Positions 1,447 to 54,510 of a stretch of 55,921 nucleotides of DNA are shown piece after piece. Position numbers and translations under genes: made by a program. Below the pieces are notes generated by a model that saw only the letters and a list, made by a program, of their open reading frames with translations, did no database searches and was not told the DNA's origin. Source of the stretch: a virus (lineage: Duplodnaviria > Heunggongvirae > Uroviricota > Caudoviricetes). The number at the start of each line of letters is the position of its first letter. Position 1 is the stretch's first letter. The stretch spans positions 1 to 55,921 of IMG/VR virus record IMGVR_UViG_2541047806_000003, one strand, 5' to 3'.

Positions 1447-1513
1447 ATGGCTGGCTTAACGAAAAAATATTTTGTATTCAACATGTTATGTTTTGTTTTG
1501 TTTTTAATTTACC

Positions 1514-1537
1514 AATTTGGTCGCAATTTGGTACACA
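1514..1537. repeat. Left copy of 24-bp prophage-end repeat AATTTGGTCGCAATTTGGTACACA (candidate integrase arm-type/att site)
   Basis: 22/24 identical to 55886-55909 immediately upstream of integrase start; contains AATTTGGT sub-repeats. Confidence 0.45.
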
Positions 1538-1564
1538 AAAAAGAAACGAGGCGTTAGCCTCGTT
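1536..1564 (-). terminator. Rho-independent terminator ending the late (tail) operon
   Basis: 8-bp GC-rich stem AACGAGGC/GCCTCGTT with loop GTTA, followed on minus strand by TCTTTTTTGTGT. Confidence 0.6.
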
Positions 1565-1611
1565 TCGCGCGGCGATGTTTTCAACATCACCATGCTATCA
1601 CTGCCGCATCA

Positions 1612-1896
1612 TTAAGCCCATGCGCGGACGCCTGGATCTGGAACAATGAAAGGCTCAAGCTGAGAAATATCAACATCGTCACCAGTTATACGCACGTTGA
1701 CGTAATAACCTTTTTTCCCAATAAGTACAGGTGTCTCGCTTTCTGGATCGTCGAATACAAGGACAAAACCGATATCATCAATAAACACGGTTGACCAATT
1801 GGCATCCAGCAAGCCGCTATTAATCACAATGTCGTTGTATTGCTGTTTGTCAGTAAATTGCAAGCTAACGTCTTTCATGTTAACCACCTTAAACAA
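1612..1896 (-). CDS. Hypothetical protein downstream of tail fibre (possible fibre assembly/accessory protein)
   Basis: 94 aa ORF, start overlaps stop of tail-fibre gene (translational coupling); last gene before terminator. Confidence 0.45.
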   Translation of the reverse strand: MFKVVNMKDVSLQFTDKQQYNDIVINSGLLDANWSTVFIDDIGFVLVFDDPESETPVLIGKKGYYVNVRITGDDVDISQLEPFIVPDPGVRAWA

Positions 1897-3685
1897 TTTC
1901 GCTTAATTGCGCATCAGTTAATGCCTTATGCCATACTCGAAAATTTCTGATATGACCAAATAAATGACGTTGTCCTGTCGTTGTCTGACCACCGATACGA
2001 ATAGTTGCGGAGCTTTGAATATAAGTCCAGGTTGTTTTTATTTCGCTGGATATACGTCCGTTACTTATTGCACATGTCAATTGATCTGCTTTTACACGCA
2101 TCCCCATAACCATTTTTTCCAGCCCGGCATTTTCATTTATTCGTCGGTCTGAACCACTTATATTGCAATACGGAAAACCGTCGTACCCACCTGATGAACC
2201 AAACCCCATTTCGATCCCCGCTCCGGTTTGATGACCGCTGATATTAAAAACACGCGGTGCTGCATTTGGCGTTTTATACCAGTTCTTATGTACCTCACAA
2301 AGAACCGTAAAAGGAAGATTATAAAGGTTATTCTTGATTGGGACTGTCACCATATCGCTTGCCCGCGTTGCCGGTGCCGTCCCCGTAACAATAAAAGATG
2401 ATGCGCCTGTACCAGCCTCAATCTGTGGAGTGGTTACATCGAGATAATCCCCTGATGTAACCATCTGCCCTGTATCCGGAGAATACTGGACAAAACCACC
2501 AACCGTATTTTCTGTTGTATCTGCTTTTAATGTAGCCTCAAAAAATATCCAGCCAGTTGCATCATCCTTAACAGACCTTGCTGTAACACGGCTTGTCTGA
2601 CCTGTCTTGCTAATTATGCGGGTGGTAAGGTTCAGGTTTGCTGCTCCTATTGATGTCCTTACCTCCCCATCATAATGTTCAAATAAAATACGAACGGCGA
2701 TATTATCAACTTCACTTTTTACCCGACAGGATATAGTTACATGCTTTTCGTCCCCTGAAGTATCAACCCCTCCGGCACTCGAATACAGTCCGATAATGGC
2801 ATGCGCTTTACTTGTACCAACAATCGAATCCTGTACGACAAACCGGCCATAATTAAACCCGAAACTATCTGCGCCTGTTTCTGTAACGTCCAGTGAAGTT
2901 GACTTATTCCACTTCGAAGGGTCTGTACTGTTCTGGAAGAAGTTCGTTCTTTGTCCCTCAATAAGCAGGCCATCACACTCAAATCGCGGCTCATTAATTT
3001 CCGCCGTTTTCAGTTCGCCAGATTTGTTGATATATGTTGCCGTTGATGCGCGACTGAAATTAACCTGTTTATCACTGGCAACCTGAACCACATTATCGCC
3101 AATCTTCACTTTTTTATAACCCGGAGAATAGCCCGTAATCATATCCAGCGAATCATTAAAGGGCATCCACACATCCGGCAGCGGCTGTAAAACATACGCG
3201 TAAGGCTGCGCCGTCTGATTGGCGTATTCGTGGGCTTCGTCTCTGTATGTCTTAGCTGAATCGGCTGCGCTTGTCGCTGTTGTTGCAGCGTTGGTTGCAG
3301 TGGTAGCTGATTGTGATGCTAATTTTGAGGCTGAAATCACATCTTTGTTGTCGCTAAAAAATTCAACTGCGTCCGCTATTTCTGATTCTTTGCCCTGATA
3401 GTAACGCAGTGTTTCGGCGACATCCTGAGCAAGACCATCCACAGAGATCGAATCTGAAAGCAGGATGCTAAATTTAGTTCCAGCCGGAATAGCCGGACTT
3501 GCCGCAGGAGTTACCGACAAACTTGTTGCGCTTTTTACCTTTGTGATTGAAAAAATCTGCACCGGATCGCTAATGGCAATAAGAGTGCAACCCACTCTGA
3601 TCAGAGATAATGCGGCGTTGAATTCAGTCCCTGCCCCGGTAACTGTGTTTCCGCTAACAGCTATAGTGCCTGTTGTGTAAATCAT
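1889..3685 (-). CDS. Distal/side tail fibre protein
   Basis: 598 aa; N-terminal MIYTTGTIAVSGNTVTGAGTEF and Ala/Thr-rich repeat ATTATNAATTATSAADSAKTYRDEA typical of tail fibres; position after J-like gene. Confidence 0.7.
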   Translation of the reverse strand: MIYTTGTIAVSGNTVTGAGTEFNAALSLIRVGCTLIAISDPVQIFSITKVKSATSLSVTPAASPAIPAGTKFSILLSDSISVDGLAQDVAETLRYYQGKESEIADAVEFFSDNKDVISASKLASQSATTATNAATTATSAADSAKTYRDEAHEYANQTAQPYAYVLQPLPDVWMPFNDSLDMITGYSPGYKKVKIGDNVVQVASDKQVNFSRASTATYINKSGELKTAEINEPRFECDGLLIEGQRTNFFQNSTDPSKWNKSTSLDVTETGADSFGFNYGRFVVQDSIVGTSKAHAIIGLYSSAGGVDTSGDEKHVTISCRVKSEVDNIAVRILFEHYDGEVRTSIGAANLNLTTRIISKTGQTSRVTARSVKDDATGWIFFEATLKADTTENTVGGFVQYSPDTGQMVTSGDYLDVTTPQIEAGTGASSFIVTGTAPATRASDMVTVPIKNNLYNLPFTVLCEVHKNWYKTPNAAPRVFNISGHQTGAGIEMGFGSSGGYDGFPYCNISGSDRRINENAGLEKMVMGMRVKADQLTCAISNGRISSEIKTTWTYIQSSATIRIGGQTTTGQRHLFGHIRNFRVWHKALTDAQLSEIV

Positions 3686-3730
3686 CGCAATAACTCCGTT
3701 TTGTTAATTAACTAAACAATTCTACCATTT

Positions 3731-3746
3731 TGTGATCTGTGTTACA
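3731..3746. promoter_or_regulatory. CRP-like palindrome TGTGATCTGTGTTACA upstream of moron 1
   Basis: 9/10 match to TGTGA-N6-TCACA; part of recurrent CATTTTGTGATCTG motif. Confidence 0.3.
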
Positions 3747-3882
3747 CTTTGGGCTTATACATAATGTATTTTTTGATCTATATCAACATACGAAATGATA
3801 GCTTCTGCGGTGATTTGCTCATCGGATGGGTGGATCATCACGAACAACAAATGACAGTAAAACAAACAGTAAGGTGAATACA

Positions 3883-4128
3883 ATGAAAAAACTAATTGTT
3901 GCTTGCATCTTATCAGCTCTGTCTTTTGGTGCTTTTGCTTCTGTAAATTCGACAGATAAGAGTGATGCTGGCACTGCTCAATATGGTGATACTGGCCTTG
4001 ATAACCAACGTTCGAGTTATTTCAATACTGACTCATGGAAAGAAAAACAACTACAAGGTAAAATTATTGACAGTGAATGTAATTTACCTATCCATTTTTC
4101 TGGTATAAATGATGGGTGTAAAAAATAA
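3883..4128 (+). CDS. Small secreted protein (moron between J and tail fibre)
   Basis: 81 aa from ATG 3883 with SD AAGGTGA; N-terminal signal peptide MKKLIVACILSALSFGAFA; opposite strand to tail genes; own terminator. Confidence 0.5.
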   Translation: MKKLIVACILSALSFGAFASVNSTDKSDAGTAQYGDTGLDNQRSSYFNTDSWKEKQLQGKIIDSECNLPIHFSGINDGCKK

Positions 4129-4140
4129 AAACAATGCATA

Positions 4141-4167
4141 AAAAACGGGGCTTATGCCCCGTTTTTT
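4141..4167. terminator. Bidirectional rho-independent terminator
   Basis: Stem AACGGGGC/GCCCCGTT, loop TTAT, A-run upstream and T-run downstream. Confidence 0.6.
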
Positions 4168-7100
4168 ATGCTGTCGTTGATGTTCTAAATGATCCGGTGC
4201 CTCTTGCTACTATCATTGTTGGAGAATACAACGCGGTACAATATGCGTATCCTTCAGATGATGATGTTTGAGGACAATATATTTTCCCGATAATATCTGA
4301 TGCTTTTAAACCAGAAAAAGCGCATTGCACTGTTAATGTGCATCCACCATAAGGCACGTAATATGAAATTGTTTTGTTTTTATCTCCGCAACTAAACGTT
4401 ACGTTATAAGTGGATCTATATTCACCAGACATTAATGAAATAGTCGCCATAAGCATAACTGATTTCGTCAATGCATTATCCGTGCTGTCTTTATATGTGA
4501 TGGTTGCGCTATAACTTCCGTTATGCCCAAGCACTCGATCTGGACCAACCCCCATGTTAGCAACGTCACCGACAAATGACTTTGCCTCTACTGTACCTTT
4601 AAACTTCCCGCTTGTGGCCTGAATCTCACCAGTGAATTTACCAGATGTTGCGTACACCGTACCGCGTACAGTGACGTTGTTGAACTCCGCATTGCCGTTT
4701 TTATTTAGCATCCAGCCAGCCGAACCAGCTTTATAGTTGGTTGACTGAATTTGCTGCGCAATCTTCGCGGTAGTGATTGATGCGTCTCTGATCCACGCAT
4801 CACGGATGTAGCAAGCACCGTTAGTAACATAGAACGGGGTCTGATAGGAGCCACCTGCCGCAGTCATAAGCACGAAACGGTCAACGAGGAAAATACACTG
4901 CGATTGAACGTTAGTCCCGCTACCAGTAAGGCCGAGCGACATTCCTGTAGCGTATTTCATACCGTTTTTATCAGTGGCAATCTTAATTGAATATGACGCA
5001 TCAACGTTACCTTTGAAGTCAGTCAGTGCTTTTGATGTCGTTTCTATCGCCGTTGTGTTTCCGTTAATAGTTACTTTCAACTGGTCGATTCTGGTTGACA
5101 ATGCCTCGTCTGCCGTTGCCATAGCCTGTGACCATTCCGTGATGCTTGAGTTTACATCGTCGAAAGATGCCGAGATCTGGCCAAATTTTTCCGCGCTTGA
5201 TGTTTCATGCGTAGAAAGTGCAGTTGACACTTCGGATACTTTCGAATTAATCGTACTGGTAAGCGATGAGTTAAGGCTGCTGATTGCGTCAGTGCGTGCA
5301 TTCTTCTCATCTGCGATCGCTTTATCCATCCTGGTTACGTTGCTTGTCACCTTGCTATCGAGCGTGGAAATTGACGCATTAACCCCGCTAATAGCTTCTG
5401 CGCGTGCGCTCGCCTCATCTGCGATTGCTTTATCAAGACGGGAAACGCTCGCGTCGGTTTTGCTTTCAAGACTACTGACGCTGGCGTTAACGTTGCTAAT
5501 AGCTTCTGCGCGTGCGCTCGCCTCATCTGCGATTGCTGTGTCTACCCTTGCTATTTCCGCTTTTGTTTTTGTTTGTCCTTTCCTGTATTTCGCCTCAATA
5601 ACAGTGCTCATCTTGCTTTGCGCCATTGAGTTATTAATAAGCGCCAGAGATGCGTTTTGCAGACTTGCTTTCGCCTGATCTATCTCGTCGCTGTTTTTAT
5701 CAACCTCACTTTTAACGCCGCCAAGCGTCGCGCTGATACCTGATATCGCCTGAGCACGTGCGCTTGATTCATCAGCGATAGCTTGATCAAGACGGCTAAC
5801 ACTGGCATTTGTGTTATTTTCAAGCGTTGTTAAATCAGCTTTAACCACTGTTATTGCGTCGCTTCTTGCCTGCGTTTCATCTGATATTGCATTATCGAGG
5901 CGCTTAACGCTGGCGTCAGTTTTCTTGTCAAGTGTTGAGATACTTGCGTTCACGTCGCTGATAGCCTGAGTACGCGCACTTGTTTCGTCTGCAATTGCCT
6001 GATCAAGACGGTTTACGCTGGCGTCAGTTTTCTTGTCAAGATTGCTTATTGAGGCATTTACACCGTTAATAGCTTCAGCGCGGGCGCTGGCCTCGTCAGC
6101 TACTGCGCGTTGCACATTAGAGATCTGACCTTTAAGGTTTGTGTCCATCACATTCATTTCTGCCGTGATGGTTTCCAGTGATTCCGCTGTCGCTTTTTTC
6201 TCTTCAGCGATAACGTTGTCAATGCGGTCAATTTCCGCTTTCGTCTCTGTCCTGCCTTTCTTGTACTGAGCGGTAAGAGTTACGCGAGTGTTAGTCTGTG
6301 CAAGCGAGTTATTAATAAGAGCAAGTGAGGCGTTTTGCAGACTTGCTTTTGCTTGCGCCAGTTCGCTGCCAACTTTTTCGCTAGACACCTCCAGCGAGTC
6401 GATTCTCGACTCATGCTGTCCAATATCATCGGCGTTTTCCTTAACTTTTTTATAAAGATCTTCCGTTTCTTTTTTGAGCGTATCAGTATCAGCTTTTATT
6501 GATCCTGTTTCTATGGTTAGGTTGTCAGTTTCAGTCCTTAAATCGTCAGTTATGTTGGTCAGATTATCAGTTGCAGTTTTGAGGTTGTCAGTAGCAGTTT
6601 TAAGGTCATTCGTAGCGCTTTCGATAAGATCAGTGCGGTCGCCTAGATCTTTAATGTCACCAACCATTTCTTTAAATTGTTTGGAATTCATTACGTCTTT
6701 GGTGACGTAATCGGTAATTTCATCAAAGTTTTCTGTTGGCTTACCTGACGCTTCCACAAAGTCAGACACACCAAAAGCGTTACGCGCGCGCACATAAACG
6801 TAATATGTGTGACCTGTATTCATGCCGCCAAACGTCCACTGATGACCACGCCCAGTATATTGTGCTTTAGTGGTTATTGATGCCGGATCAGTGATCTGCG
6901 TTTCACCTGAGTAATAAAACTCGTAACTGGTATCAGTGGTGAGCGTTGTTCTGCTGATCGGGTAAACTGTAGCCTGGAATACACCGGGAACCCAATTAAC
7001 GCCAACTGGGGCCGCTGGTGCGCCAATAACCAGATCGACAATGCTTTCCGCACCCTTCATGCCCGTGTCATTTCTGCCACGAATGCCTAATGAGTAGTTG

Positions 7101-9136
7101 CCAGCATCAATGCCATAAAAATCATAACTGTAATTCGTGGTTTCGTAGCTTTTAACTACAGCGCCTTCGGCGTTATACACGCGAATCTCAAAGGTCAGGC
7201 GACGCGTTGTCGTCTGTGTTTCCCATGTTGCGCGACATTGAACCGTTTCAGATCCAACGTTTAACACCTTCAGATTTTCAATGTTCGGCACGCGGAAGTG
7301 ATTAAGCGTGTCGTTATTGATCTCGAAGATTGCGCCATTATCGACTACGGCCTGCTTATGTGGATCATGCTGTGCGGCCTCGATGGTGTATACGCTGTTA
7401 TTTTCTGTTTCTGCTACACTGGTGATTCGACATAAAACGGGTTTTGCTGCGTTGGTTGATACAGCAAAAACAGTGCCGTTACGAATCCACGCCGGGGCGG
7501 CTGCAAGGGTGATAATGTTCCCGTTAACTCCGATGATCTGGTGTTTTTTAAATTTACCATCGCTATCAAGTAAGCTGATGGTGTCGCCAGCCGCGATATA
7601 TTCAGAATCAACCTTGTCGACCGTGATCGCTCTGCCATTGTTCGCCACGATGCGACCGCCTAAACGAGCGCCTGCGCGATTATTATCGAGGATCTCGATT
7701 ATATCCCCCGGCGTAAAGTGAATGGCGTCACGGGCCATTTTAAATGTGAATTTTGACGGCTCGCGTTTCGCTGTTTCGATCAGCCATTTACCAGCGCGGT
7801 GCGCTTGCCCGCGTGAAGTGCAACCGAACGCCTCCAACGTGGTTTCGTTATAACCATCACGGGCGATTAGTTTATCATCTGCGACATATTCTTTTGATTG
7901 CTCCCAGCCGTTTTCAGGGTCAGTCCAGGATACGATCACGGCGTTGTAGCATTCTGCGCGTGCGATACTTGAACGAGTAAACGCGCCATCAACGACGTTT
8001 GCATTTGTGATGGTGGCGATTGGATCTTGTGGCGCATCAATCATCACGGTAAGACGTTGTCCGTCCCATAACGCGATACCACGGAACATACCTGCGATGT
8101 TGTCCAGTAGGTCGCGGGCGCTCATTTGCTCCGTAATGTAAGCGTTAAGCGTCATGCGAGGTTCAAGGCCACCATAGCCATCATCAACCAACTGATCGCA
8201 GTATTGAGAAAGCACGTACAAAGCGCCATCATCAACATCAATGTAACCAGCATGTCGAGCAAGTCCAAAGCGCTCGTTTTTAACCAGATACCGGAAAAGC
8301 CATGCAGGGTTATTGGTATACGCCTTTTTAAATCCACCAAGCCATAAACCTGAATATGTGCGCGTTTCAGGGTTGTAGTTGTCAGGCACATCAACAATCA
8401 GGCCGCGAAGGTGATAGGTGCGGGTAGGCGTATCAGTATACTGATCATGGTCAATTACGGCGCCAGCTACAGCGGTATGAGGATAAGACAGATTATCATC
8501 TATTATTTCGCTGTAACTACTCCACCGCGTATCATTCCGCAATAGATCGCCGTTGCTGTCTGGTGTTATGCGACGAACGCGAATATCAAACGGTTTTTCA
8601 TCCGGCGCTTTAATGATGTGAGCTTCCAGGTATTCACCGCTTTGTTTACCAGGGCCAATGTGTATGTCTTTAATCAGCGACCACGTAGAAGATGATGACG
8701 GTTTAACATCAACCATCAACATGACGGATGTATTATATTGATTGCCCTTTTCATCTGACTGAACGAGAGCATCAACACCAAGATTCAACCTGACGCGGGT
8801 AACGTTTGGATCTGAAACAGTCCTGATTATTGGTGTGTCGTGAGTTACCTTTGCGTTGACAATAACGGTTGACTCAATGGCGTTAAAACCATTAATCGGC
8901 GATTGGTCAGCCGTGCCGTTGCGCCAGGCTATACTAATCCCCGGAATTGATGTATTCCCGTTTGCGTCAGTAACAGGAGTGTCATTAAGCATCACGTCAT
9001 TCAATGGCGCTTTCTGGTTTACCGGACCGTATATCGGCCCTTCGCTGAGAATATCTAAAACACGATAAAACTGTTTGTGATACAGGTTATCGTTCAATAA
9101 TGTTGGTGTTTTGGCTTTGCCGCCGCCGCTACTCAT
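4166..9136 (-). CDS. Host-specificity / central tail fibre protein (lambda J-like) with long coiled-coil repeat extension
   Basis: 1656 aa; N-terminal two thirds resemble lambda gpJ (e.g. YSGLWLGGFKKAYTNNPAWLFRYL); residues about 920-1400 are heptad-like repeats (DASVSRLDKAIADEASARAEAISGVNASIS...). Confidence 0.85.
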   Translation of the reverse strand: MSSGGGKAKTPTLLNDNLYHKQFYRVLDILSEGPIYGPVNQKAPLNDVMLNDTPVTDANGNTSIPGISIAWRNGTADQSPINGFNAIESTVIVNAKVTHDTPIIRTVSDPNVTRVRLNLGVDALVQSDEKGNQYNTSVMLMVDVKPSSSSTWSLIKDIHIGPGKQSGEYLEAHIIKAPDEKPFDIRVRRITPDSNGDLLRNDTRWSSYSEIIDDNLSYPHTAVAGAVIDHDQYTDTPTRTYHLRGLIVDVPDNYNPETRTYSGLWLGGFKKAYTNNPAWLFRYLVKNERFGLARHAGYIDVDDGALYVLSQYCDQLVDDGYGGLEPRMTLNAYITEQMSARDLLDNIAGMFRGIALWDGQRLTVMIDAPQDPIATITNANVVDGAFTRSSIARAECYNAVIVSWTDPENGWEQSKEYVADDKLIARDGYNETTLEAFGCTSRGQAHRAGKWLIETAKREPSKFTFKMARDAIHFTPGDIIEILDNNRAGARLGGRIVANNGRAITVDKVDSEYIAAGDTISLLDSDGKFKKHQIIGVNGNIITLAAAPAWIRNGTVFAVSTNAAKPVLCRITSVAETENNSVYTIEAAQHDPHKQAVVDNGAIFEINNDTLNHFRVPNIENLKVLNVGSETVQCRATWETQTTTRRLTFEIRVYNAEGAVVKSYETTNYSYDFYGIDAGNYSLGIRGRNDTGMKGAESIVDLVIGAPAAPVGVNWVPGVFQATVYPISRTTLTTDTSYEFYYSGETQITDPASITTKAQYTGRGHQWTFGGMNTGHTYYVYVRARNAFGVSDFVEASGKPTENFDEITDYVTKDVMNSKQFKEMVGDIKDLGDRTDLIESATNDLKTATDNLKTATDNLTNITDDLRTETDNLTIETGSIKADTDTLKKETEDLYKKVKENADDIGQHESRIDSLEVSSEKVGSELAQAKASLQNASLALINNSLAQTNTRVTLTAQYKKGRTETKAEIDRIDNVIAEEKKATAESLETITAEMNVMDTNLKGQISNVQRAVADEASARAEAINGVNASISNLDKKTDASVNRLDQAIADETSARTQAISDVNASISTLDKKTDASVKRLDNAISDETQARSDAITVVKADLTTLENNTNASVSRLDQAIADESSARAQAISGISATLGGVKSEVDKNSDEIDQAKASLQNASLALINNSMAQSKMSTVIEAKYRKGQTKTKAEIARVDTAIADEASARAEAISNVNASVSSLESKTDASVSRLDKAIADEASARAEAISGVNASISTLDSKVTSNVTRMDKAIADEKNARTDAISSLNSSLTSTINSKVSEVSTALSTHETSSAEKFGQISASFDDVNSSITEWSQAMATADEALSTRIDQLKVTINGNTTAIETTSKALTDFKGNVDASYSIKIATDKNGMKYATGMSLGLTGSGTNVQSQCIFLVDRFVLMTAAGGSYQTPFYVTNGACYIRDAWIRDASITTAKIAQQIQSTNYKAGSAGWMLNKNGNAEFNNVTVRGTVYATSGKFTGEIQATSGKFKGTVEAKSFVGDVANMGVGPDRVLGHNGSYSATITYKDSTDNALTKSVMLMATISLMSGEYRSTYNVTFSCGDKNKTISYYVPYGGCTLTVQCAFSGLKASDIIGKIYCPQTSSSEGYAYCTALYSPTMIVARGTGSFRTSTTA
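4940..6380. repeat. Intragenic tandem repeat region within J-like gene
   Basis: Exact 41-bp repeat TAATAGCTTCTGCGCGTGCGCTCGCCTCATCTGCGATTGCT at 5388-5428 and 5507-5547 plus many degenerate copies encoding the coiled coil. Confidence 0.6.
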
Positions 9137-13326: not shown

Positions 13327-13359
13327 AACCCCGGCATTGCACCGGGGTTTAGTTTATTT
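13327..13359 (+). terminator. Rho-independent terminator of moron 3
   Basis: Stem AACCCCGG/CCGGGGTT, loop CATTGCA, then T-rich tract. Confidence 0.6.
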
Positions 13360-15696
13360 GCGGCGAGGTTGCAACATTCCGCCTGGTCTTTGAGATTCCC
13401 TTGTTATCATTTTCATGGCTACACGTTCCATTGTTAATTCAAGTCTGCGGCTGTCTTCGTCGCTGAATCCGTTCGTGGTCTGAATGCTGATACTGACAGG
13501 CATACTAATACCGCCACCGCCGCCAATATCACGGCCCGGAATAACTCTGCCGTTCTCGCCAGGGATCATATATTGATTGCCGTTAGATGTCTGGAATAGC
13601 TCCGGCCTGTTGTGTTCCCCTACGCGGTACATATTACCACCAATGACGCTACCACCATTAAAGCGACCGCCGCCGAAAATTGACGTAGCCAGCGACATGA
13701 TCGCAGTGAGCGCCGCCGAACCAGCCGCCGCCCAGCTACCGCCAGTTGACGCCGCAGTTGCCGCCGCTGCTGGGGCCGCCGCCGCAGCAATGCTTCCCTG
13801 AGCTGCTACCGCGCTTGCTGTTGTACTTGTTTGCGTGGCCTTGCTTTGTGTCTCCATCATGATCTGATCTGCTATCCAGTTTGCAGCTATGTCTGAGAGT
13901 CTGTTACCGATATTGCCGAGTATATTGCTTCCTAAGTTAGCAAAAACATCACTCAATGATTGAGTGCCGTTTAACAGGCCAACAAGCGCATTACTCATTC
14001 CGCCTTTAAGGCCATTAACACAATCACCGATAAGGCCGTTTGTGTCGCTTTGCGCCTGCCATTGTTCCCATTTCAGATCGCGGATCTGTTGCTCATAGGC
14101 TAACAATTCCTGTTTCTGTTGCGCTTCAGTAGCGCCCAGGTCTATAAGCATTTGCTTACGGATGGCCCATTCATTTTGCGCCTGCTGGATGGGGTCAACT
14201 TCGCCTTTTAGCTGATCCATCGGGCTTACTATTTGTGACCATTTATCACGCAATTCATCTACCGGAATTTGTGCTAATTCTTCTTTCAGTTCCTTGCCGA
14301 TCCCTTTTTGCGCGGCGCGGTACTCAAGGAGCGTGATTTTACCCTGGGCAAATGCAGCATCAATGGCCTTGCCGTTCTCCAACGCTTTGCGCATGGCGGC
14401 GGCGTCTTTGTTGTACTGATCAGAAACGCTTATACCTTTGTCACCAAGCCGATCAGCTTCCGATTTCTTCTCTTTTTTCTGTTTTTTCGGCTTGTCTACT
14501 GGCTTGTCGAATCCGGTAATCGCTCCGTCATTGGCAGCATTCTGTTCATTTTTCCTTGCTTCTTCTGTAGCCTGGATTGCTGCGGTCAGATCATCCTGTA
14601 GTTGCATGACCTTGCCAACGGTCTTCCCGTATTTCTTCTCGTAGTTGCTGTTATATTCGTCGGTTTGCTCTCCTACTACCTCCTTCATCCATTTATAGCC
14701 ATCCATTAGCGCCTTGATTGGCGTCACCATTGCGATGATCTTCTCTGCCACCTCTCCAGCCTTAACAGCCACATCATCAAACATGTCGATAAATTCGCTA
14801 CCAGCCGTTTTGAGTGTGTCGAAGCAGGTTTTAGCGAATTTAGCGCCATCGCCAAGCCCTTTAACGCCTTTCGTGATCAAGTCGATAGCTGAAACAACGC
14901 CATCTGACACGCCAAAAAGATCATCCAACTGCTCAACAAGGCCCATAATTTCTACTTTAAGCTCATTGATAGCCATGCCGGATGTGCGCGGCAACTGAGC
15001 AAACTTATCGTTTGTTTCCTGCGTAGCCGCCTGTATTGCGTTAACCATCCTTTCAGCCGTGATCTTGCCGTCCAGCATTTCGGCGCGGAACTGGCCCATT
15101 GATAATCCCATATGGCGGGCCATTGTTTGTACGATGGTCGGCGTATTTTCAAGCAGGCTGTTAAATTCTTCGGCACGAAGAACACCGCCGTCGATAGACT
15201 GACGGAATTGACGCATTGAGTTAGACATCTGTTCCGCTGACGCGCCGCCTAATGCACCCATTTTCTGAATAGTGCCAACCAGGTTAAGCAATTGCCCTTC
15301 CGTAGCGGAGGTGTTTTTTAGTGAGATAGCCAGGCCTTGCCATAATTCGCCAGTATCTTTCAGGCTCTGCCCCGTCTCCCTGGATATTGCTTTCAGGCCG
15401 TCGAAAACCCGTCCGGCGGACTCCGCATCGCCCGTAAGCATTTTGATTTTTACGCGAAGCATTTTTGCTTGCTCCGCCATATCCATAAATTGGCGCACAG
15501 CCTCCGCAGCAATTAGCAGATGGATAACCCTGGTCAGTGCCTTGATGGATGTTTTCAGGGTGTTTACCTGGCGGTCAGCCTGTTTTGCGCCGCGCTCTAT
15601 ACGATCAAAGGCCTGGTCTGCCTGTCGTTGTGCAACGAGAAGTTGACCAGTTTTCGCATCAACTTCGTAATAAATTGTACCTACACTGGTAGCCAT
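13354..15696 (-). CDS. Tail tape measure protein
   Basis: 780 aa, alpha-helical, Ala/Gly-rich C-terminal part, position between chaperone and M-like. Confidence 0.85.
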   Translation of the reverse strand: MATSVGTIYYEVDAKTGQLLVAQRQADQAFDRIERGAKQADRQVNTLKTSIKALTRVIHLLIAAEAVRQFMDMAEQAKMLRVKIKMLTGDAESAGRVFDGLKAISRETGQSLKDTGELWQGLAISLKNTSATEGQLLNLVGTIQKMGALGGASAEQMSNSMRQFRQSIDGGVLRAEEFNSLLENTPTIVQTMARHMGLSMGQFRAEMLDGKITAERMVNAIQAATQETNDKFAQLPRTSGMAINELKVEIMGLVEQLDDLFGVSDGVVSAIDLITKGVKGLGDGAKFAKTCFDTLKTAGSEFIDMFDDVAVKAGEVAEKIIAMVTPIKALMDGYKWMKEVVGEQTDEYNSNYEKKYGKTVGKVMQLQDDLTAAIQATEEARKNEQNAANDGAITGFDKPVDKPKKQKKEKKSEADRLGDKGISVSDQYNKDAAAMRKALENGKAIDAAFAQGKITLLEYRAAQKGIGKELKEELAQIPVDELRDKWSQIVSPMDQLKGEVDPIQQAQNEWAIRKQMLIDLGATEAQQKQELLAYEQQIRDLKWEQWQAQSDTNGLIGDCVNGLKGGMSNALVGLLNGTQSLSDVFANLGSNILGNIGNRLSDIAANWIADQIMMETQSKATQTSTTASAVAAQGSIAAAAAPAAAATAASTGGSWAAAGSAALTAIMSLATSIFGGGRFNGGSVIGGNMYRVGEHNRPELFQTSNGNQYMIPGENGRVIPGRDIGGGGGISMPVSISIQTTNGFSDEDSRRLELTMERVAMKMITRESQRPGGMLQPRRK

Positions 15697-15823: not shown

Positions 15824-16483
15824 ATGAAACGGTTAGCAAAAGTGGCAATGATTGCGGCGGTATTGGGTCTGGTTGGTTGCAATGAGGATAATGAAAAAGC
15901 GCCTATAGTGACCAATCAAGAGCAACAAGCATTAGCAGAGAAAAATGCTAAATGGCTTGCAGAACAACAAGCAAAACAAGCCGCATACGATGCACAGTTA
16001 GAAAAAGAAAATGCTGGTAAACAGTGGCTTGTAGTTGAAAGAAAAGATGATATGCAGGACGCAAAAAACGTATTCCTTTTTGTGAAAGCAGAACAATTCA
16101 GCGGAAGTCTTGATGCTTTCCCGACACTGAAGGCACAGGATAAGAATAAACCGGTATTAACAATCGCTTGCCAGGGTAATAAAACAAAAATGTTCGTAGC
16201 ATGGTCACACCATGTAACTGACGCCGGGGACACTACTTATATTAACTACCGGATCGGCGTTCACAAAGCTGTAGCTACTGAGTGGTGGCGGTCAACTAAT
16301 TATAAAGCTCTTGGATTATGGGACGGCAAAAAAGCCATCCCAATGATTAAAAAACTGGTTAACGAAAAACAATTCATCATTGAAGTAGTGCCGGAAGCTG
16401 GCGACATTGAGAAAGCAGTGTTTAACATTGATGGTCTTTATAACCACATCGACAAAGTGAAAAACGCTTGCAACTGGAATTAA
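15824..16483 (+). CDS. Lipoprotein (moron 4, gene 1)
   Basis: 219 aa; signal peptide plus lipobox LVGC; SD GGTGGG. Confidence 0.6.
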   Translation: MKRLAKVAMIAAVLGLVGCNEDNEKAPIVTNQEQQALAEKNAKWLAEQQAKQAAYDAQLEKENAGKQWLVVERKDDMQDAKNVFLFVKAEQFSGSLDAFPTLKAQDKNKPVLTIACQGNKTKMFVAWSHHVTDAGDTTYINYRIGVHKAVATEWWRSTNYKALGLWDGKKAIPMIKKLVNEKQFIIEVVPEAGDIEKAVFNIDGLYNHIDKVKNACNWN

Positions 16484-38335: not shown

Positions 38336-38493
38336 AATGCTCTCTCCTTTTCAGGTGATTTCTACGCATTTCAGCGCTGCCGGATTTTTAAAGAGCATTT
38401 TGTTTGCTTGAAGTATACAAAATGGATACCCCAAACAAGGCAAAAAGCGCCATTATGTGATCCGCATCACGCAATGACGCCATTTTGTAAATT

Positions 38494-39258
38494 TCAGTCC
38501 GGTAAAACGCGGTTAAGCGTAGTACGATTGATGGCCCAGTCGTTAGCCAGGAATACAGCACGGGCAAAGCCGCGCGGCGTTAGTGAGCGGATCATCTTAG
38601 TGCGTTTCGACTTTCCTCCTAACTTAGCGTGCTGTTTGCTGTCTTCCCATTCATCCGGCATAGGTACAGGCCGGAATAGCGGCTGCTTAAATCCATTCCC
38701 GCACCAGATACAAGTTTTCTTCGTGTAGGCGTCGCGGTCGGCGATGTATTCCGGGAAAGCTGGATGCTTATCATCTTCCGGCAGGTAGCCACCGTAAGCG
38801 CACGGATTAAAGATAAAATCCGGTTTACGCCATAACGTTGACAGTGCGCCCACCGGATTTTCCACCATCCACGGGACGTGGTACATATCAGCAAGCGTTT
38901 CTACCAGTTTTGCGTTGTATGCCGCCTTCTGCTGGAAGTAAGGATCTTTTTTCCGCTTATCAGCAAACCAGCGAGCGCCGGACACCGCAAGATCGTCGCA
39001 CGGAGGAAAGCCCAGGATAATGTCAGGATCTGGATAAACAGACAATTCAGGGGAGAACATTGCCAGGAAATGGCTGTCAATCCATACGTTGACATACTCA
39101 ATGTTCGGATGAATGATTTTGACGCCTTCATAATCGCCGTGATTAGCGCCATCATAGTTGAAGCAATAGCATTTATAACCAGCGTCGGCCCAATCTTTAA
39201 CGGCGTATCCGCTGCCGTCGTACAGCGACCACACCACCCAATTTCTAAGCCCACTCAT
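38494..39258 (-). CDS. Putative DNA (cytosine-5) methyltransferase-like protein (short)
   Basis: 254 aa; motif-IV-like GFPPCDDLAVSG and motif-VI-like VENPVGAL; LYDGSGY resembles motif I. Confidence 0.5.
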   Translation of the reverse strand: MSGLRNWVVWSLYDGSGYAVKDWADAGYKCYCFNYDGANHGDYEGVKIIHPNIEYVNVWIDSHFLAMFSPELSVYPDPDIILGFPPCDDLAVSGARWFADKRKKDPYFQQKAAYNAKLVETLADMYHVPWMVENPVGALSTLWRKPDFIFNPCAYGGYLPEDDKHPAFPEYIADRDAYTKKTCIWCGNGFKQPLFRPVPMPDEWEDSKQHAKLGGKSKRTKMIRSLTPRGFARAVFLANDWAINRTTLNRVLPD

Positions 39259-39758
39259 TTCCTACCCTCGAACGTAAAGTAGCGGCGCATGATGATAGTG
39301 ATCACCGTTACCGCCGCCATTTTTGAGATGAATTGCATAGCTGATATTTCCGGCATGAATGCCATAAACGATAGCGTGGGAAAAATTAACGCATCGCCAA
39401 TGGCGGACGCTATATTTGCAGGCCAGCGTTTAGAATCGAAATCACCAGGTAAAACCCGGTAAACGCCGCCAGAAATAAGCGCACCGGAAACAACCGCGAC
39501 GAATGACGCGATCGCCACCATTCCGGCGTCGTAATTTATCAGCACCGTGATTGCGCCAGCGGCGGCGCATGTTGTAGCCGACCATTTAAGGCCGCCGCCA
39601 TATAACAGAAAATCACGAATCATCATATTGACACACACGGCGGCTACCGTGGTGATCGGAATTACCCACGGGCCACAGTGGTTAACAATAAGATTGATGA
39701 TAACGAAAACGGCGACATAAACGCAGGCTAATAACCTGTCAATTGCCACCATCTTCAT
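39255..39758 (-). CDS. VUT/YhhQ-like (DUF165) membrane transporter homolog
   Basis: 167 aa, 4-5 TM helices; KRWPANIASAIGDALIFPTLSFMAF resembles YhhQ conserved region. Confidence 0.5.
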   Translation of the reverse strand: MKMVAIDRLLACVYVAVFVIINLIVNHCGPWVIPITTVAAVCVNMMIRDFLLYGGGLKWSATTCAAAGAITVLINYDAGMVAIASFVAVVSGALISGGVYRVLPGDFDSKRWPANIASAIGDALIFPTLSFMAFMPEISAMQFISKMAAVTVITIIMRRYFTFEGRK

Positions 39759-40077
39759 TTAGCTCTCCCTCCCGATCCGCTAATATCTGTTCGGCCTTAA
39801 GCGCGTTATAAGCAATAAGGTCTATAAGAGTGTCGAGCGGATCAGTTCCATTAGCGAGAATAGCCCCTAAACGCGCTTCCTTGAGGCAAATCATTAGATC
39901 CCATACATCAAGTGGGGTTAAATTTGCATTCATCTTAGCGTTGAAAATAGCCGCTATTTTTGGCGCTGATTTTTCTTCTTTTCGATCGTATCCGTTTTCC
40001 TCCCCTCTTGCCTCGATAGTTTCAGCCGCAAGTCTCAGCAATTCAGCCGCTTTATTCATTTTCTGCACCTCTTGCAT
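39739..40077 (-). CDS. Hypothetical protein
   Basis: 112 aa ORF. Confidence 0.45.
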   Translation of the reverse strand: MQEVQKMNKAAELLRLAAETIEARGEENGYDRKEEKSAPKIAAIFNAKMNANLTPLDVWDLMICLKEARLGAILANGTDPLDTLIDLIAYNALKAEQILADREGELNEDGGN

Positions 40078-40603
40078 ATAGCTCTTTACGTGTTATCTGC
40101 GTGAAAATACATTCATGTCTGCATCGTGGATGCCAGATCAGGAACAAGCTCCCCTTATTGTTCCCGCTTACTGGTTTCCCTGTTGCAGCATTGATAAACG
40201 CCAGACGCCCGCGCGTGATTAATCGGCATTCGTTTGCCGTCTCCACGCCGTTCATAAACCAGCTAACAGAAATGTCAGCGGGCAATAGCATTACACAGCC
40301 AATATGATTTCGTTGATGTTCAAGCGCCGCCTTATCAACGAATGGCCCAGGATTAGAATATGGTGGATTAAGCCAAACATACTCACCAGGCATTGCCACC
40401 GCTCCCCACGGATAATGCAACGTGTCCATTTCTTCGGTTATATATCGCGGAACTAGCGCGTTTGCTTTGTTTGCCGCCACGTCCGCGACAAATTCAAATT
40501 CGCGGTCCATTCCTCTGAAAACTGGTTTAGGCGTCTGCCATAGATCTTTAATTTCCTTTGGAGTGTGACTACCTCCAAAATCATTTTTCATCATGACCCC
40601 CAT
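40052..40603 (-). CDS. Phage-type DNA N6-adenine methyltransferase (Dam-like)
   Basis: NPPYS motif (VWLNPPYSNPGPF); alternative starts at 40594/40591. Confidence 0.75.
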   Translation of the reverse strand: MGVMMKNDFGGSHTPKEIKDLWQTPKPVFRGMDREFEFVADVAANKANALVPRYITEEMDTLHYPWGAVAMPGEYVWLNPPYSNPGPFVDKAALEHQRNHIGCVMLLPADISVSWFMNGVETANECRLITRGRLAFINAATGKPVSGNNKGSLFLIWHPRCRHECIFTQITRKELYARGAENE

Positions 40604-40854: not shown

Positions 40855-41074
40855 AATCACGCGAAACAGTAAAGCAAAAACCGATGAATGCGCTACCAGC
40901 CAATAAAGCGCGTACAGTAAAAAGAATGCTTTCAATGTCGTTAAATTCAGGTACTGACCATGTAACAAAAATCATACCCAGCGTAAATATGACGATAGCG
41001 CCACTGAACACCAAAAAAACAAAAAGCGTAACCAAAAGCCACGCCTTTAACCAGTTTAAAAAGCTCTTAACCAT
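40853..41074 (-). CDS. Small membrane protein
   Basis: 73 aa, two hydrophobic helices. Confidence 0.35.
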   Translation of the reverse strand: MVKSFLNWLKAWLLVTLFVFLVFSGAIVIFTLGMIFVTWSVPEFNDIESILFTVRALLAGSAFIGFCFTVSRD

Positions 41075-41075
41075 T

Positions 41076-41279
41076 TTAAACCTCGTCTATTACACCGTCT
41101 TTCACCCGCTCTTTTATATCCCATACATGAGGTTTGCATATTTCCTGATAATAGTGATCAGGCCTGCTGCCGAAATACCATTTGCCTTCCATATAAAAGT
41201 AAACGCCCGAAAAGTTTCCGGGCGCTGCCTTTGTTGCTGCTTCTGGGATTTTCCACTCTTTATAGCGTTTATACTTCAT
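41076..41279 (-). CDS. Hypothetical protein
   Basis: 67 aa ORF. Confidence 0.4.
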   Translation of the reverse strand: MKYKRYKEWKIPEAATKAAPGNFSGVYFYMEGKWYFGSRPDHYYQEICKPHVWDIKERVKDGVIDEV

Positions 41280-41460
41280 ACATTTTTACCGCCTGTTTTA
41301 GATCTTTTAATGTGCAAGGCATCAAGCGAAAATGCTGAACGCCTTTAATGATGCAGATTAGGTAAATGTCACCGATTGAGTTGTAGTAATAACATCCGCA
41401 ATAACCGACACCAGCTAATTTGGCGTTGTCCGGTAACTTATATTCTCCAACGCATTTCAT
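41269..41460 (-). CDS. Hypothetical protein
   Basis: 63 aa ORF. Confidence 0.4.
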   Translation of the reverse strand: MKCVGEYKLPDNAKLAGVGYCGCYYYNSIGDIYLICIIKGVQHFRLMPCTLKDLKQAVKMYEV

Positions 41461-41876: not shown

Positions 41877-42506
41877 TTAATGCAGTACACGTTTTTCCGG
41901 TTCAGGCATTGGCTGTGAGTTTTTCCGTGCATCATTAAGCACAGCTATAGCCGCCTGCACGCCGAAATCATTTGCACGCATATCAGTGCCAACCATTTCG
42001 CCGTAAAACAATGGCATAAGGTGTTTAACTTCTTCTTCTTCGTAACCGTCATCAACGAACTTCTCTAGCAATTTAACTTCAAACAGTTTTTTCATCATGT
42101 CACGCATAGTATGCAGTGCAATGCTACCCATATGATTTTCATCCAGCGGGAAGATAACAGCACTTCCGAACGCCATCGGGTCAATCTCTTCCGGCACTGG
42201 CACTCGACCAAAATCCTCTTCCATGCGTTTTACGAAAGTAAGGCAGAAGACATAACGAGCTACAACCGTTTTTTCTTCAGCGTTTAAAGAAACATAATCG
42301 CGGATCGACGCGTCCATCACAATATCAACGATCTGCATAGCCAGGTTTAAATCAGCGTCATACGCGCCAGCTTCCATATCTTTTAATACTTCGTGATAAT
42401 CCTTCGTTTCCACTTCATGAACACTTGCGTCTTCAGTGTAGCGAGTGATTAACATGCCATTGCCGCCAAGTGAATAAGCTGTTTTGATGTCGTTCATGAT
42501 GTTCAT
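41877..42506 (-). CDS. Hypothetical protein
   Basis: 209 aa ORF. Confidence 0.5.
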   Translation of the reverse strand: MNIMNDIKTAYSLGGNGMLITRYTEDASVHEVETKDYHEVLKDMEAGAYDADLNLAMQIVDIVMDASIRDYVSLNAEEKTVVARYVFCLTFVKRMEEDFGRVPVPEEIDPMAFGSAVIFPLDENHMGSIALHTMRDMMKKLFEVKLLEKFVDDGYEEEEVKHLMPLFYGEMVGTDMRANDFGVQAAIAVLNDARKNSQPMPEPEKRVLH

Positions 42507-48683: not shown

Positions 48684-49595
48684 ATGTGTAAGTTAACACA
48701 TGAGGAACATGTTGCCGCTATTGCGAAAGTTAATCCTGATGTTGAAGTGCTGGGGAAAATTATTAATAGCAAAACAAAAGTATTATGCCGCTGCAGAGTT
48801 TGCGATCATGAGTGGTCGCCTAGACCTACCGACCTAAAATACGGGAAAGGCTGCCCGAAATGTTCTGGTCACACAAAGTTGTCGCATGAAGAACATGTTA
48901 AGGCTATTGCGAAAGTTAATCCTGATGTTGAAGTGCTGGGAGAAATAACGAACGTCGATATAAAAGTATTATGCCGCTGCAAAGTTTGTAATCATGAGTG
49001 GTTGCCGCGGCCTAGCTTTCTTAAACGGGGGAGTGGCTGCCCGAAATGTCGCGGTGGTAGTGATAGACTGTCACACGAGGAACAAGTCACGGATATTGCT
49101 AAGGTTAATCATGATATTGAAGTACTAGGGAGAATTACAGGCAGCCTGAAAAAAGTATTGTGCCGCTGCAAAGTTTGTGGCCATAAAAGGATGTGTACAC
49201 CCCACAACCTTAAGCGCGGCGACGGCTGTCCAAAATGCGCAAAATACGGCTTTCTTCGTCATGAGCGCGGTAAACTTTACATCATGACTGACGATCTGGA
49301 AGTGCCTACACAAATGAAAATTGGTGTAAGCGTTAAGGAGAACGAGCGAAGAAATGAAATATTAAAAAGCGCACATAAAGCAGGTGTTAGAATTCCTGAT
49401 TTGCATATCGTGAAAACGTTAGAAGGGCCAACTGAAAATATCCATGAATTAGAAAGCACGATGCATAAGGCTTTTAGCAATTATAAAATTAACTTCCCTG
49501 TAAAATTTGATGGTAGTAATGAGTTTTTCTATTACAGGCCGGAAGTATTCGACATGGTAGAAGAAGCATATAAAGAGATTGTTTGCTGTCAATGA
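48684..49595 (+). CDS. T5orf172/GIY-YIG-like domain protein with three N-terminal zinc-ribbon repeats (possible free-standing homing endonuclease)
   Basis: 303 aa; three repeats of about 62 aa each with CRCxVC...GCPKC; C-terminal GKLYIMTDD...KIGVS...GSNEFF. Confidence 0.5.
   Translation: MCKLTHEEHVAAIAKVNPDVEVLGKIINSKTKVLCRCRVCDHEWSPRPTDLKYGKGCPKCSGHTKLSHEEHVKAIAKVNPDVEVLGEITNVDIKVLCRCKVCNHEWLPRPSFLKRGSGCPKCRGGSDRLSHEEQVTDIAKVNHDIEVLGRITGSLKKVLCRCKVCGHKRMCTPHNLKRGDGCPKCAKYGFLRHERGKLYIMTDDLEVPTQMKIGVSVKENERRNEILKSAHKAGVRIPDLHIVKTLEGPTENIHELESTMHKAFSNYKINFPVKFDGSNEFFYYRPEVFDMVEEAYKEIVCCQ
48693..49253. repeat. Three tandem repeats of about 186 bp inside ORF 48684-49595
   Basis: Near-identical stretches such as GCTATTGCGAAAGTTAATCCTGATGTTGAAGTGCTGGG and GTATTATGCCGCTGCA-AGTTTG recur. 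Confidence 0.6.
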
Positions 49596-53838: not shown

Positions 53839-53853
53839 TTGAGGATAAACAAA

Positions 53854-54510
53854 ATGAGTGAATCAAAAGCAATCGGTGTGATTAGCCATCGCACTAACCC
53901 TGAATGCTACCCATCGTTTGAAGTATCGACATGCAGGGAAGAATATAATTTTGGATCATGTTATTTGGTTGGTGTTCGCGCTGATCGCGACACTTATTCT
54001 GTTATGGCGGCAAGCTGGAAGTTTGATAAATATGCCAATTTATCTAATAAAGATGATGATGGCATGAATAAAGAAAGTGAAATCATTAACGAATTAATCG
54101 AAGATGAGCGGCATGATTGCGATACGCCAGAAGTTACGGAATGGATGGCAGGAGAAAAGCCTCCATGCGGAGTATGGCTTGAGCTTCTAGATCCTGTCGA
54201 TGGTCGGAAATATGTTATTCTGAAATACAAGTATATAAGTGATCGCCTTGCTCTTTTTGTAGAAATGGATGCGCCTGATTTTGAACAAGCCGGGGAATGG
54301 AAGCATTTCGCTCATAAGTTGTATGTAGATCCGAAAGAAAAAACACTGGCTGAAATTGCGTTTGCACTTGCTACTAAGGTTATCGGCGAAGATGCTGCAA
54401 AAGAAATTGATTTTAACCGCGACAACGAATTTTCGTGCGATTATCGCAATATGGCGCAAGCTATTATAGACGGATGTATAGGACACGTTGAATATACGGG
54501 TGGTGAATAA
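53854..54510 (+). CDS. Hypothetical protein
   Basis: 218 aa from ATG 53854 (SD GAGGA). Confidence 0.45.
   Translation: MSESKAIGVISHRTNPECYPSFEVSTCREEYNFGSCYLVGVRADRDTYSVMAASWKFDKYANLSNKDDDGMNKESEIINELIEDERHDCDTPEVTEWMAGEKPPCGVWLELLDPVDGRKYVILKYKYISDRLALFVEMDAPDFEQAGEWKHFAHKLYVDPKEKTLAEIAFALATKVIGEDAAKEIDFNRDNEFSCDYRNMAQAIIDGCIGHVEYTGGE

Follow-up and report, generated by a model that had tools for sequence, protein, structure and literature searches.

Two orphan DNA methyltransferase genes and a VUT/YhhQ-like transporter gene without 7-deazaguanine partners in an mEpimmI-type prophage of Escherichia coli

The window analyzed here, a stretch of 55,921 nucleotides (nt) that makes up the viral record IMGVR_UViG_2541047806_000003, holds a whole Escherichia coli prophage that is 86-90% identical to mEp021 and the mEpimmI group of Nus-dependent temperate coliphages. 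On the minus strand of its early region lies a block of four genes, which encode, in 5' to 3' order, a Dam-family N6-adenine DNA methyltransferase (183 amino acids [aa]; 40052..40603), a DUF6378 protein (112 aa; 39739..40077), a short six-helix VUT/YhhQ-like membrane protein (167 aa; 39255..39758), and a compact DNMT3-like C5-cytosine methyltransferase of the "phage Dcm-like" type (254 aa; 38494..39258). The first was assigned by Pfam Dam, TIGR01712, and phrog_111, the second by Pfam PF19905, the third by phrog_4899 and profile searches, and the fourth by phrog_757, its motifs, and its predicted fold. We consider it fairly probable that the block comprises two orphan anti-restriction methylases together with an orphan VUT transporter, which is uncoupled from 7-deazaguanine DNA modification and would still import a queuosine precursor.

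The four open reading frames (ORFs), which a sequence-only reading had described as co-linear, were all found on the minus strand where that reading had placed them, and they are real genes rather than chance frames. Consecutive genes overlap by 26, 20, and 4 nt (from Dam through DUF6378 and VUT to the C5 methylase), and these overlaps suggest that the translation of the four genes is coupled. The gene order is kept in approximately 46 near-identical viral contigs and, together with the following NinG, RusA, and Q genes, also in the divergent contig L003, the proteins of which are 50-63% identical. The block was found in 35 of 5,426 complete E. coli genomes. In these genomes the NCBI pipeline names Dam and DUF6378, and sometimes the cytosine methylase, and leaves the membrane protein "hypothetical"; in the mEp021 record the four genes are labeled putative Dam, hypothetical, putative membrane protein with six transmembrane segments, and putative cytosine methyltransferase. 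The ratios of nonsynonymous to synonymous substitution rates (dN/dS), determined pairwise over 39-48 related loci, were 0.067 for Dam, 0.22 for DUF6378, 0.10 for the C5 methylase, and 0.043 for VUT (39 distinct alleles), the last being the lowest of the four. In addition, of 46 mEp-type viral contigs, 45 have an uninterrupted VUT ORF with 95-99% identity, and the ORF is intact in L003 as well. The VUT gene is under strong purifying selection.

The 167-aa protein matched phrog_4899 (1.1e-45), a family listed under "unknown function" in PHROGs, and had just 12 word-indexed homologues. An exhaustive search of 1.84 billion representatives with a profile of 7 relatives yielded 261 homologues at E values up to 1e-3. 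PF02592 (Vut_1) was matched by 125 of the 128 homologues tested, one of which is fused to a QueF-like domain, and a relative with 33% identity (BLASTP E value, 6e-25) by itself scores above the gathering threshold of Pfam Vut_1. Comparison of the deep family profile with E. coli YhhQ gave a probability of 94.5% (E value, 7.5e-8) over 139 columns, and comparison with gp41 of phage CAjan, a 159-aa "putative preQ0 transporter," gave 97.6% (E value, 4e-12). Six long helices were seen in the AlphaFold2 model, with a model confidence (pLDDT) of only 66, and six transmembrane segments are recorded for the mEp021 membrane protein by TMHMM and Phobius. The residues conserved in the family are mostly kept (N22, G29, R48, D49, A82, A84, S85, N115, D122, F126, F131, and K146); the mEpimmI clade departs from the consensus at several nearly invariant sites; for instance, it has Ala in place of the Ser that follows the invariant Asp122 and in place of the Gly that follows Lys146. 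These profile comparisons place the 167-aa protein in the VUT/YhhQ family as a divergent short member, and the relationship to YhhQ suggested by the sequence-only reading was borne out to that extent.

CAjan gp41 is a short form like the 167-aa protein and belongs to the same family by profile comparison, although the two cannot be linked by BLAST. YhhQ is approximately 50 aa longer than the 167-aa protein, the loops of which are shortened. CAjan gp41 is encoded within a folE-queD-queC-queE-dpdA cluster, whereas the phage in the window has none of those genes. Many bacterial and metagenomic homologues of the short VUT (P0151, P0158, P0159, P0162, P0202, P0255, and others; approximately 290-340 aa) have a C-terminal extension of approximately 140 aa, which matches DUF5020 in two of them.

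The neighborhoods of VUT genes in other viruses were then compared. IMG/VR contained 374 viral contigs with a VUT relative, and the loci of the best 80 of the 374 were examined; the distant viral loci, with 31-47% identity, numbered 33. A DpdA-like gene adjoins VUT in 30 of these 33 loci. In 27 of them it is a phrog_887 "queuine tRNA-ribosyltransferase" gene encoding approximately 245 aa and lying mostly immediately upstream of VUT, and in three it is a TGT+DUF6884 gene; among the three loci without a DpdA-like neighbor, one contig ends just upstream of VUT. The 245-aa family matched CAjan DpdA with a probability of 96.4% (E value, 1.4e-9), and deletion of dpdA in CAjan abolishes DNA modification (PMC7544227). 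Pectobacterium phage PEAT2 and Acinetobacter phage AB3P2 are cultured phages annotated with a DpdA-VUT pair. FolE, QueD, and QueE had been considered as conserved neighbors in the distant loci, and this was wrong: the genes concerned encode AAA_24, DUF7173, DUF669, a Cas4-like exonuclease, and a helicase, and the 245-aa gene is the only DpdA-like one among the conserved neighbors. The 245-aa proteins were also compared with the 254-aa methylase as candidate homologues and are not homologous to it.

In the pairs of phrog_887 and phrog_4899 genes, such as those of PEAT2 and L051, the VUT protein belongs to the same PHROG as that of the window and is 32-37% identical to it. In loci of this type the DpdA-like gene (with QueC in L051) precedes VUT, whereas Dam and DUF6378 hold that place in the window. 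L051, a high-G+C viral contig, carries at 935-3894 a DpdA-like gene, a QueC-like gene, a short VUT gene, a C5 methylase gene of approximately 215 aa (PF00145), and NinG. Because the order of VUT, methylase, and NinG is common to L051 and the window, it suggests that the mEpimmI block descends from a DpdA-QueC-VUT-methylase module, and the order in L051 is possibly the ancestral arrangement. At another VUT locus a phrog_757 methylase gene lies 3 kb away. The nearest VUT relatives outside the mEp group, with 47-48% identity, are found in L050, a 136-kb viral contig, and L088, a contig of a Succinivibrio metagenome-assembled genome, and no DpdA was found within the contig sequence examined for either. 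Their VUT neighbors are YunG-like and phrog_2510 genes, and in L050 an N6/N4 DNA methylase is encoded two genes downstream. A scan of species-representative genomes gave a single VUT locus of 48% identity, which is without DpdA.

The sequence-only reading had seen no tgt- or dpdA-like gene, and this was upheld by every search of the prophage. In Pfam and PHROG scans of the ORFs of at least 150 aa, three excepted, none of TGT/DpdA, FolE, QueC, QueD, QueE, and QueF was found, and ORFs below approximately 120 aa were partly covered. When all six-frame ORFs were searched with a hidden Markov model (HMM) built from 24-27 phage DpdA-like proteins, the best E values were 1.1-1.9. A phmmer search of the same ORFs with CAjan DpdA gave a best E value of 0.087, and one with a TGT-like phage protein also gave nothing. 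Genes for queuosine or deazaguanine receive no mention in the mEpimmI genome paper (PMC11893012). Every phage known to carry 7-deazaguanine in its DNA encodes DpdA, the signature protein (Cui et al., PMC10516641); the absence of DpdA from the prophage therefore argues against 7-deazaguanine DNA modification.

The 254-aa protein matched phrog_757 (1.9e-87) and had 2,395 homologues, mostly of 226-260 aa. No Pfam family at E values up to 0.1 and no NCBIfam model was matched, the gathering score of PF00145 was not reached, and a precomputed PF00145 match was present in 3 of the 120 homologues listed. On the other hand, the motifs named by the sequence-only reading are present: motif IV, GFPPC, occupies residues 83-87 with the catalytic Cys87, and motif VI, ENPVG, occupies residues 133-137 with Glu133. 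Motif I is YDGSG at residues 12-16, and D14, G15, S16, and G17 are invariant or nearly so among 25 homologues; in the family alignment DGSG of motif I, PPC, and ENP are invariant. A direct sequence search of the PDB returned nothing useful, and the family profile matched 13 PDB entries, all 13 of which are C5 methylases, at a weak E value of 0.07. The AlphaFold2 model (pLDDT, 86.3; predicted TM score, 0.86) was compared with the PDB by Foldseek, and the top 50 matches were all catalytic domains of DNMT3A/3B (E values, 9e-8 to 1e-5; TM scores, approximately 0.45-0.5). By its motifs and predicted fold, the 254-aa protein is a complete, compact, orphan C5-cytosine methylase of DNMT3-like type. 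It belongs to a divergent branch of C5 methylases that the general PF00145 model misses, and is not a nonmember.

BLASTP showed 61% identity over 232 aa (E value, 2e-101) between the 254-aa protein and the Dcm-like protein of phage KarlJaspers (Bas06; 711-bp gene), the genome of which is 95.4% identical to that of phage K42; it was the KarlJaspers protein that was compared with the window protein. K42 Dcm was shown by liquid chromatography-mass spectrometry to form 5-methylcytosine (5mC) on the msDNA of retron Ec86, with CCWGG implicated, and its activity was lost when C82, E128, or K175/K176 was mutated (bioRxiv 10.1101/2023.08.16.553469). C82 and E128 correspond to C87 and E133 of the 254-aa protein, and the pair of lysines is also aligned in the BLASTP comparison. 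The catalytic core is complete and the family has an experimentally active member, so that the reservation attached to the methylase assignment, that a complete core and a target-recognition domain might be lacking, does not apply; the family is compact but functional. By analogy with K42 Dcm, the 254-aa protein would form 5mC, and its target may be the CCWGG site implicated for the relative. The K42 and KarlJaspers proteins (Drexlerviridae) share with it a size of approximately 230-250 aa, motif I, PPC, and ENP, and the predicted DNMT3-like fold is common to both, since the K42 Dcm model was likewise superposed on DNMT3A in the K42 paper. They differ in that K42 and KarlJaspers are virulent T1-like phages, whereas the gene in the window belongs to a temperate mEpimmI phage; in that the window protein has approximately 15 additional C-terminal residues, which are modeled with low confidence; and in motif IV, which reads PPCD in the window protein and PPCT in the K42 and KarlJaspers proteins.

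The assignment of the 183-aa protein as Dam-like was confirmed above the curated cutoffs. It matched Pfam PF05869 (Dam) at 9.9e-52 with 175.5 bits (cutoff, 28.1) over profile positions 1-167 of 169, and TIGR01712 (phage_N6A_met) with 141.7 bits (cutoff, 97.05); a phrog_111 match and the NPPY motif are also present. From these matches it is recognized as an ordinary, full-length, orphan N6-adenine methylase of the phage Dam family, and its target, judged from the family, is probably GATC. It resembles the phage Dam proteins of the T1/VT-2 type in matching both models over the full length, in its NPPY motif, and in being encoded by an orphan early-region gene; its identity to the Dam-like protein of KarlJaspers is merely 40%.

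The 112-aa protein matched DUF6378 (PF19905, 4.8e-9) and gave no functional lead. Its homologues are all DUF6378 proteins of E. coli prophages, and those in RefSeq begin at Met7, which gives 106 aa. The form in the window is short, whereas most relatives reach 161-170 aa through an extension of approximately 60 aa at the C terminus, which is poorly conserved. The alignment shows a conserved core of approximately 100 aa and a tail that is deleted in the window, absent in L003, and present in mEp021 gp31 (L001 5435-5932). No PDB match was obtained by direct or profile searches, and the homologue and literature searches gave no indication of function. A pyrophosphohydrolase adjoining VUT in L082 was compared with DUF6378 and showed no similarity, and a MazG-like assignment guessed from acidic motifs was unsupported.

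Natural variants were used to examine whether the four genes behave as a unit. The methylase is cleanly deleted and VUT is kept in L032, and an internal deletion of the methylase is found in L042-L044. In L011 (8501-9028) and L013 the position of the methylase is taken by a 175-aa ORF with an HNH-like motif (VDHINHVKTDNR), which is probably a homing endonuclease. Conversely, L049 keeps the methylase, whereas DUF6378 is missing entirely, Dam for the most part, and VUT in its 5' half. Furthermore, the methylase family of the phrog_757 type occurs in 1,516 phage records, among them many phages of E. coli, Klebsiella, Salmonella, and other hosts, nearly all without a BLAST-detectable relative of the VUT protein in the window, and such VUT relatives occur in 21 phage records. 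The block consists of modular accessory genes and is not one machine. The integrated DNA-modification cluster with a link to 7-deazaguanine, as entertained in the sequence-only reading, was not sustained, in view of both this uncoupling of methylase from VUT and the lack of any DpdA, TGT, or preQ0-synthesis gene. As a separate observation, the 78-aa P0139 carries a natural in-frame deletion that joins approximately the first 48 residues of VUT to approximately the last 30 of the C5 methylase. Both proteins have an "MIR" peptide (MMIRDF / KMIRSL) at the point of fusion, and the event looks like a microhomology-mediated deletion.

In the explanation that we favor, the four genes would form a translationally coupled accessory block in an N-dependent early operon, within a nin-like region upstream of NinF, NinG, RusA, and Q, of an mEpimmI temperate coliphage integrated beside abgT. 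The T1/VT-2-type Dam would place N6-methyladenine on DNA, probably at GATC, and the compact DNMT3-like phage Dcm would place 5mC on it. With expression early in the lytic cycle, the replicating phage DNA would become methylated, and restriction enzymes that need unmethylated sites could not cut it. The proposal of two orphan methyltransferases for anti-restriction, made already from the sequence alone, is reasonable because no restriction enzyme gene is adjacent. The VUT protein is of the type that in other phages is presumed to import preQ0 and is encoded next to DpdA, which exchanges guanine in DNA for a 7-deazaguanine base. DpdA and the preQ0-synthesis genes would have been lost from the prophage or would never have been in it, and because DpdA and all of the preQ0-synthesis genes are missing, the transporter is not considered to be part of DNA hypermodification. 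It would still import a queuosine-precursor base (preQ0/preQ1), which could be used only through the QueF/Tgt route of the host to queuosine in tRNA. This agrees with an earlier suggestion that phages that encode Que proteins and lack DpdA may raise queuosine in tRNA (Hutinet et al. 2019, PMC6884629).

Several points weigh against this explanation. E. coli has a YhhQ of its own and can make queuosine completely de novo, which renders the benefit of an extra importer questionable. Moreover, E. coli K-12 produces its own Dam and Dcm. The prophage shows neither avoidance nor enrichment of the presumed target sites, the observed/expected ratios being 0.99 for GATC and 0.93 for CCWGG. Used directly, the 167-aa protein matched no Pfam family (PF02592 included) and no NCBIfam model at E values up to 0.1, and no PDB entry. 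A shallow profile made from close relatives only fails to reach YhhQ, and a Foldseek comparison of the low-confidence model with viral structures gave no significant match, the top one being a "putative vitamin uptake transporter" (E value, 0.47). Membership in the VUT family therefore rests on transitive profile evidence, and the substrate and the direction of transport are predictions from the family. In CAjan, DNA modification was unaffected by a yhhQ deletion in rich medium (PMC7544227).

The search for DpdA also has its own reservations. Subfamilies of DpdA were overlooked in the past (PMC10516641). Among the ORFs of at least 150 aa, those outside the family scans encode 1656 aa (4166-9136) and 780 aa (13354-15696), both in the tail region, and 154 aa (40884-41348, plus strand), the last being probably spurious. 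A very divergent transglycosylase might be encoded by an unannotated ORF, for example 53839-54510 or 41877-42506. The former (plus strand, 223 aa) lies between NinB and the integrase gene and matched nothing in Pfam, PHROG, or the PDB. All seven mEpimmI-type phages that have been sequenced carry it, but with only 51-71% identity, and it is therefore fast evolving. The latter (209 aa) had no Pfam match and belongs to a PHROG family of unknown function.

Other explanations concern mainly the role of VUT. It is unlikely, in our judgment, that the VUT-like protein has changed its job and now transports another small molecule (a nucleobase or a vitamin-like compound), or serves a membrane role such as superinfection exclusion or control of when the host is taken over, and has nothing to do with queuosine precursors. 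Such a change would agree with the fact that the mEpimmI clade and its nearest relatives in L050 and L088 (47-48%) are the members without an adjacent DpdA, with the clade-specific substitutions after Asp122 and Lys146, and with the family name, which reflects varied "vitamin" substrates. Most of the family-conserved residues are kept, however, and the phage relatives of VUT stand almost always beside DpdA. In addition, we know of no experimentally supported substrates of the VUT family other than queuosine precursors, which are reportedly the substrates of YhhQ (Zallot 2017, as cited in PMC6884629). We regard as unlikely the view that the phage keeps the importer in order to reprogram its host, supplying more preQ0/preQ1 to the host Tgt and altering tRNA queuosine during lytic growth; feeding an unrecognized DNA-modifying enzyme of the phage would be the less likely version of it.

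That all four genes form one DNA-hypermodification pathway, with VUT importing a base or cofactor for an unrecognized phage enzyme (a cryptic transglycosylase, DUF6378, or the C5-methylase-like protein with a nonmethyl donor), appears very unlikely. The tight packing of the genes, the order of which is conserved even at 50-63% protein identity, speaks for a pathway of this kind, as do the DpdA-QueC-VUT-C5 methylase-NinG order of L051, which mirrors the VUT-C5 methylase-NinF-NinG order of the window, the phrog_757 methylase 3 kb from another VUT, and the past oversight of DpdA subfamilies. Against it stand the failure of Pfam, PHROGs, two custom searches, and phmmer with CAjan DpdA to reveal any DpdA/TGT-like ORF, and the variants in which the methylase is deleted or replaced with VUT intact or, in one case, is kept while Dam, DUF6378, and the 5' half of VUT are dropped. 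The tested member of the methylase family simply forms 5mC, and the family is found in 1,516 records compared with 21 for BLAST-detectable relatives of VUT. Also, as weak evidence, NdeI cuts mEpimmI DNA into normal restriction fragment length polymorphism patterns (PMC11893012). Least probable is the possibility that the VUT gene has lost its function and persists in the operon only as a leftover of an ancestral DpdA-VUT module. The absence of DpdA, the L051-type synteny suggestive of descent from a DpdA-QueC-VUT-methylase module, and the lack of a phenotype of the CAjan yhhQ deletion (PMC7544227) would fit a remnant, but the VUT gene has the lowest dN/dS of the four and its ORF stays intact both in the mEp-type contigs and in L003.

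The prophage is flanked by host abgT (1-1446, plus strand) at one end of the window and ends with the tyrosine integrase gene (54686-55921, minus strand) at the other, and its boundary on the abgT side lies near 1.5-1.9 kb. Genes for Erf, SSB, and a CI-type repressor lie upstream of the four-gene block. On its 3' side a NinF-like ORF is followed on the minus strand by NinG, RusA, and the antiterminator Q, as assigned by Pfam and PHROG. A promoter scan found no promoter-like site on the coding strand inside the block, and no promoter or terminator on that strand was found above the shuffled expectation. The block is closed by a conserved intergenic region (38336..38493, minus strand), a 158-nt spacer 3' of the methylase gene that is 96% identical to mEp021 over approximately 170 nt and thus better conserved than the methylase gene next to it. 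In the mEp021 record a terminator, TERM_4, is annotated 14 nt past the methylase gene, and the counterpart in the window would be located at approximately 38447-38480. In mEp021, nutR2 is reported to lie downstream of the methylase gene and upstream of ninF/ninG (PMC11893012). The terminator scan made no call at the TERM_4 counterpart, and the terminator and nutR2 are assigned by homology only.

Elsewhere in the prophage, a 219-aa ORF (15824-16483, plus strand) lies within the tail module but is oriented opposite to it; it contains a type VI secretion VasI domain (PF11319, 1.2e-15) and looks like a moron. The gene at 48684-49595 (plus strand) encodes 303 aa that include DUF4379/CapR zinc-finger and T5orf172 domains. 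It lies upstream of DnaB, with a replication-initiator-like gene on one side and on the other a gene assigned to phrog_704 ("DNA repair exonuclease"), and it may be a mobile nuclease gene or related to defense.

Both methylase families were already known, as were VUT/YhhQ genes of phages in deazaguanine clusters, and the occurrence of YhhQ in some phages follows no clear pattern (Hutinet et al. 2019, PMC6884629). New are the identity of the "hypothetical" gene, the location of phrog_4899 beside DpdA in nearly all of the distant loci examined, and a conserved case without DpdA in a tractable coliphage. The membrane protein, "hypothetical" in RefSeq and a "putative membrane protein" in mEp021, can now be named as a short VUT/YhhQ-family transporter of the kind that normally accompanies DpdA, and the 254-aa protein is now tied to an experimentally active phage Dcm. 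Phage Dcm triggers retron Ec86, and a phage Dam was earlier identified as a retron trigger (bioRxiv 10.1101/2023.08.16.553469). Since methylases of both the Dcm and Dam types trigger retrons, carrying them has costs besides benefits. The finding of two methylases with an orphan VUT does not overturn the current understanding; a related question, on phages that have Que genes and no DpdA, was raised by Hutinet et al. 2019 (PMC6884629). The orphan VUT of mEp021 on E. coli K-12 offers a tractable system for a phage queuosine-precursor transporter without a DNA transglycosylase. If host reprogramming or service to a cryptic enzyme were true, the mEpimmI protein would be the first VUT of a phage to act outside a DpdA system, in an easily manipulated phage that infects K-12.

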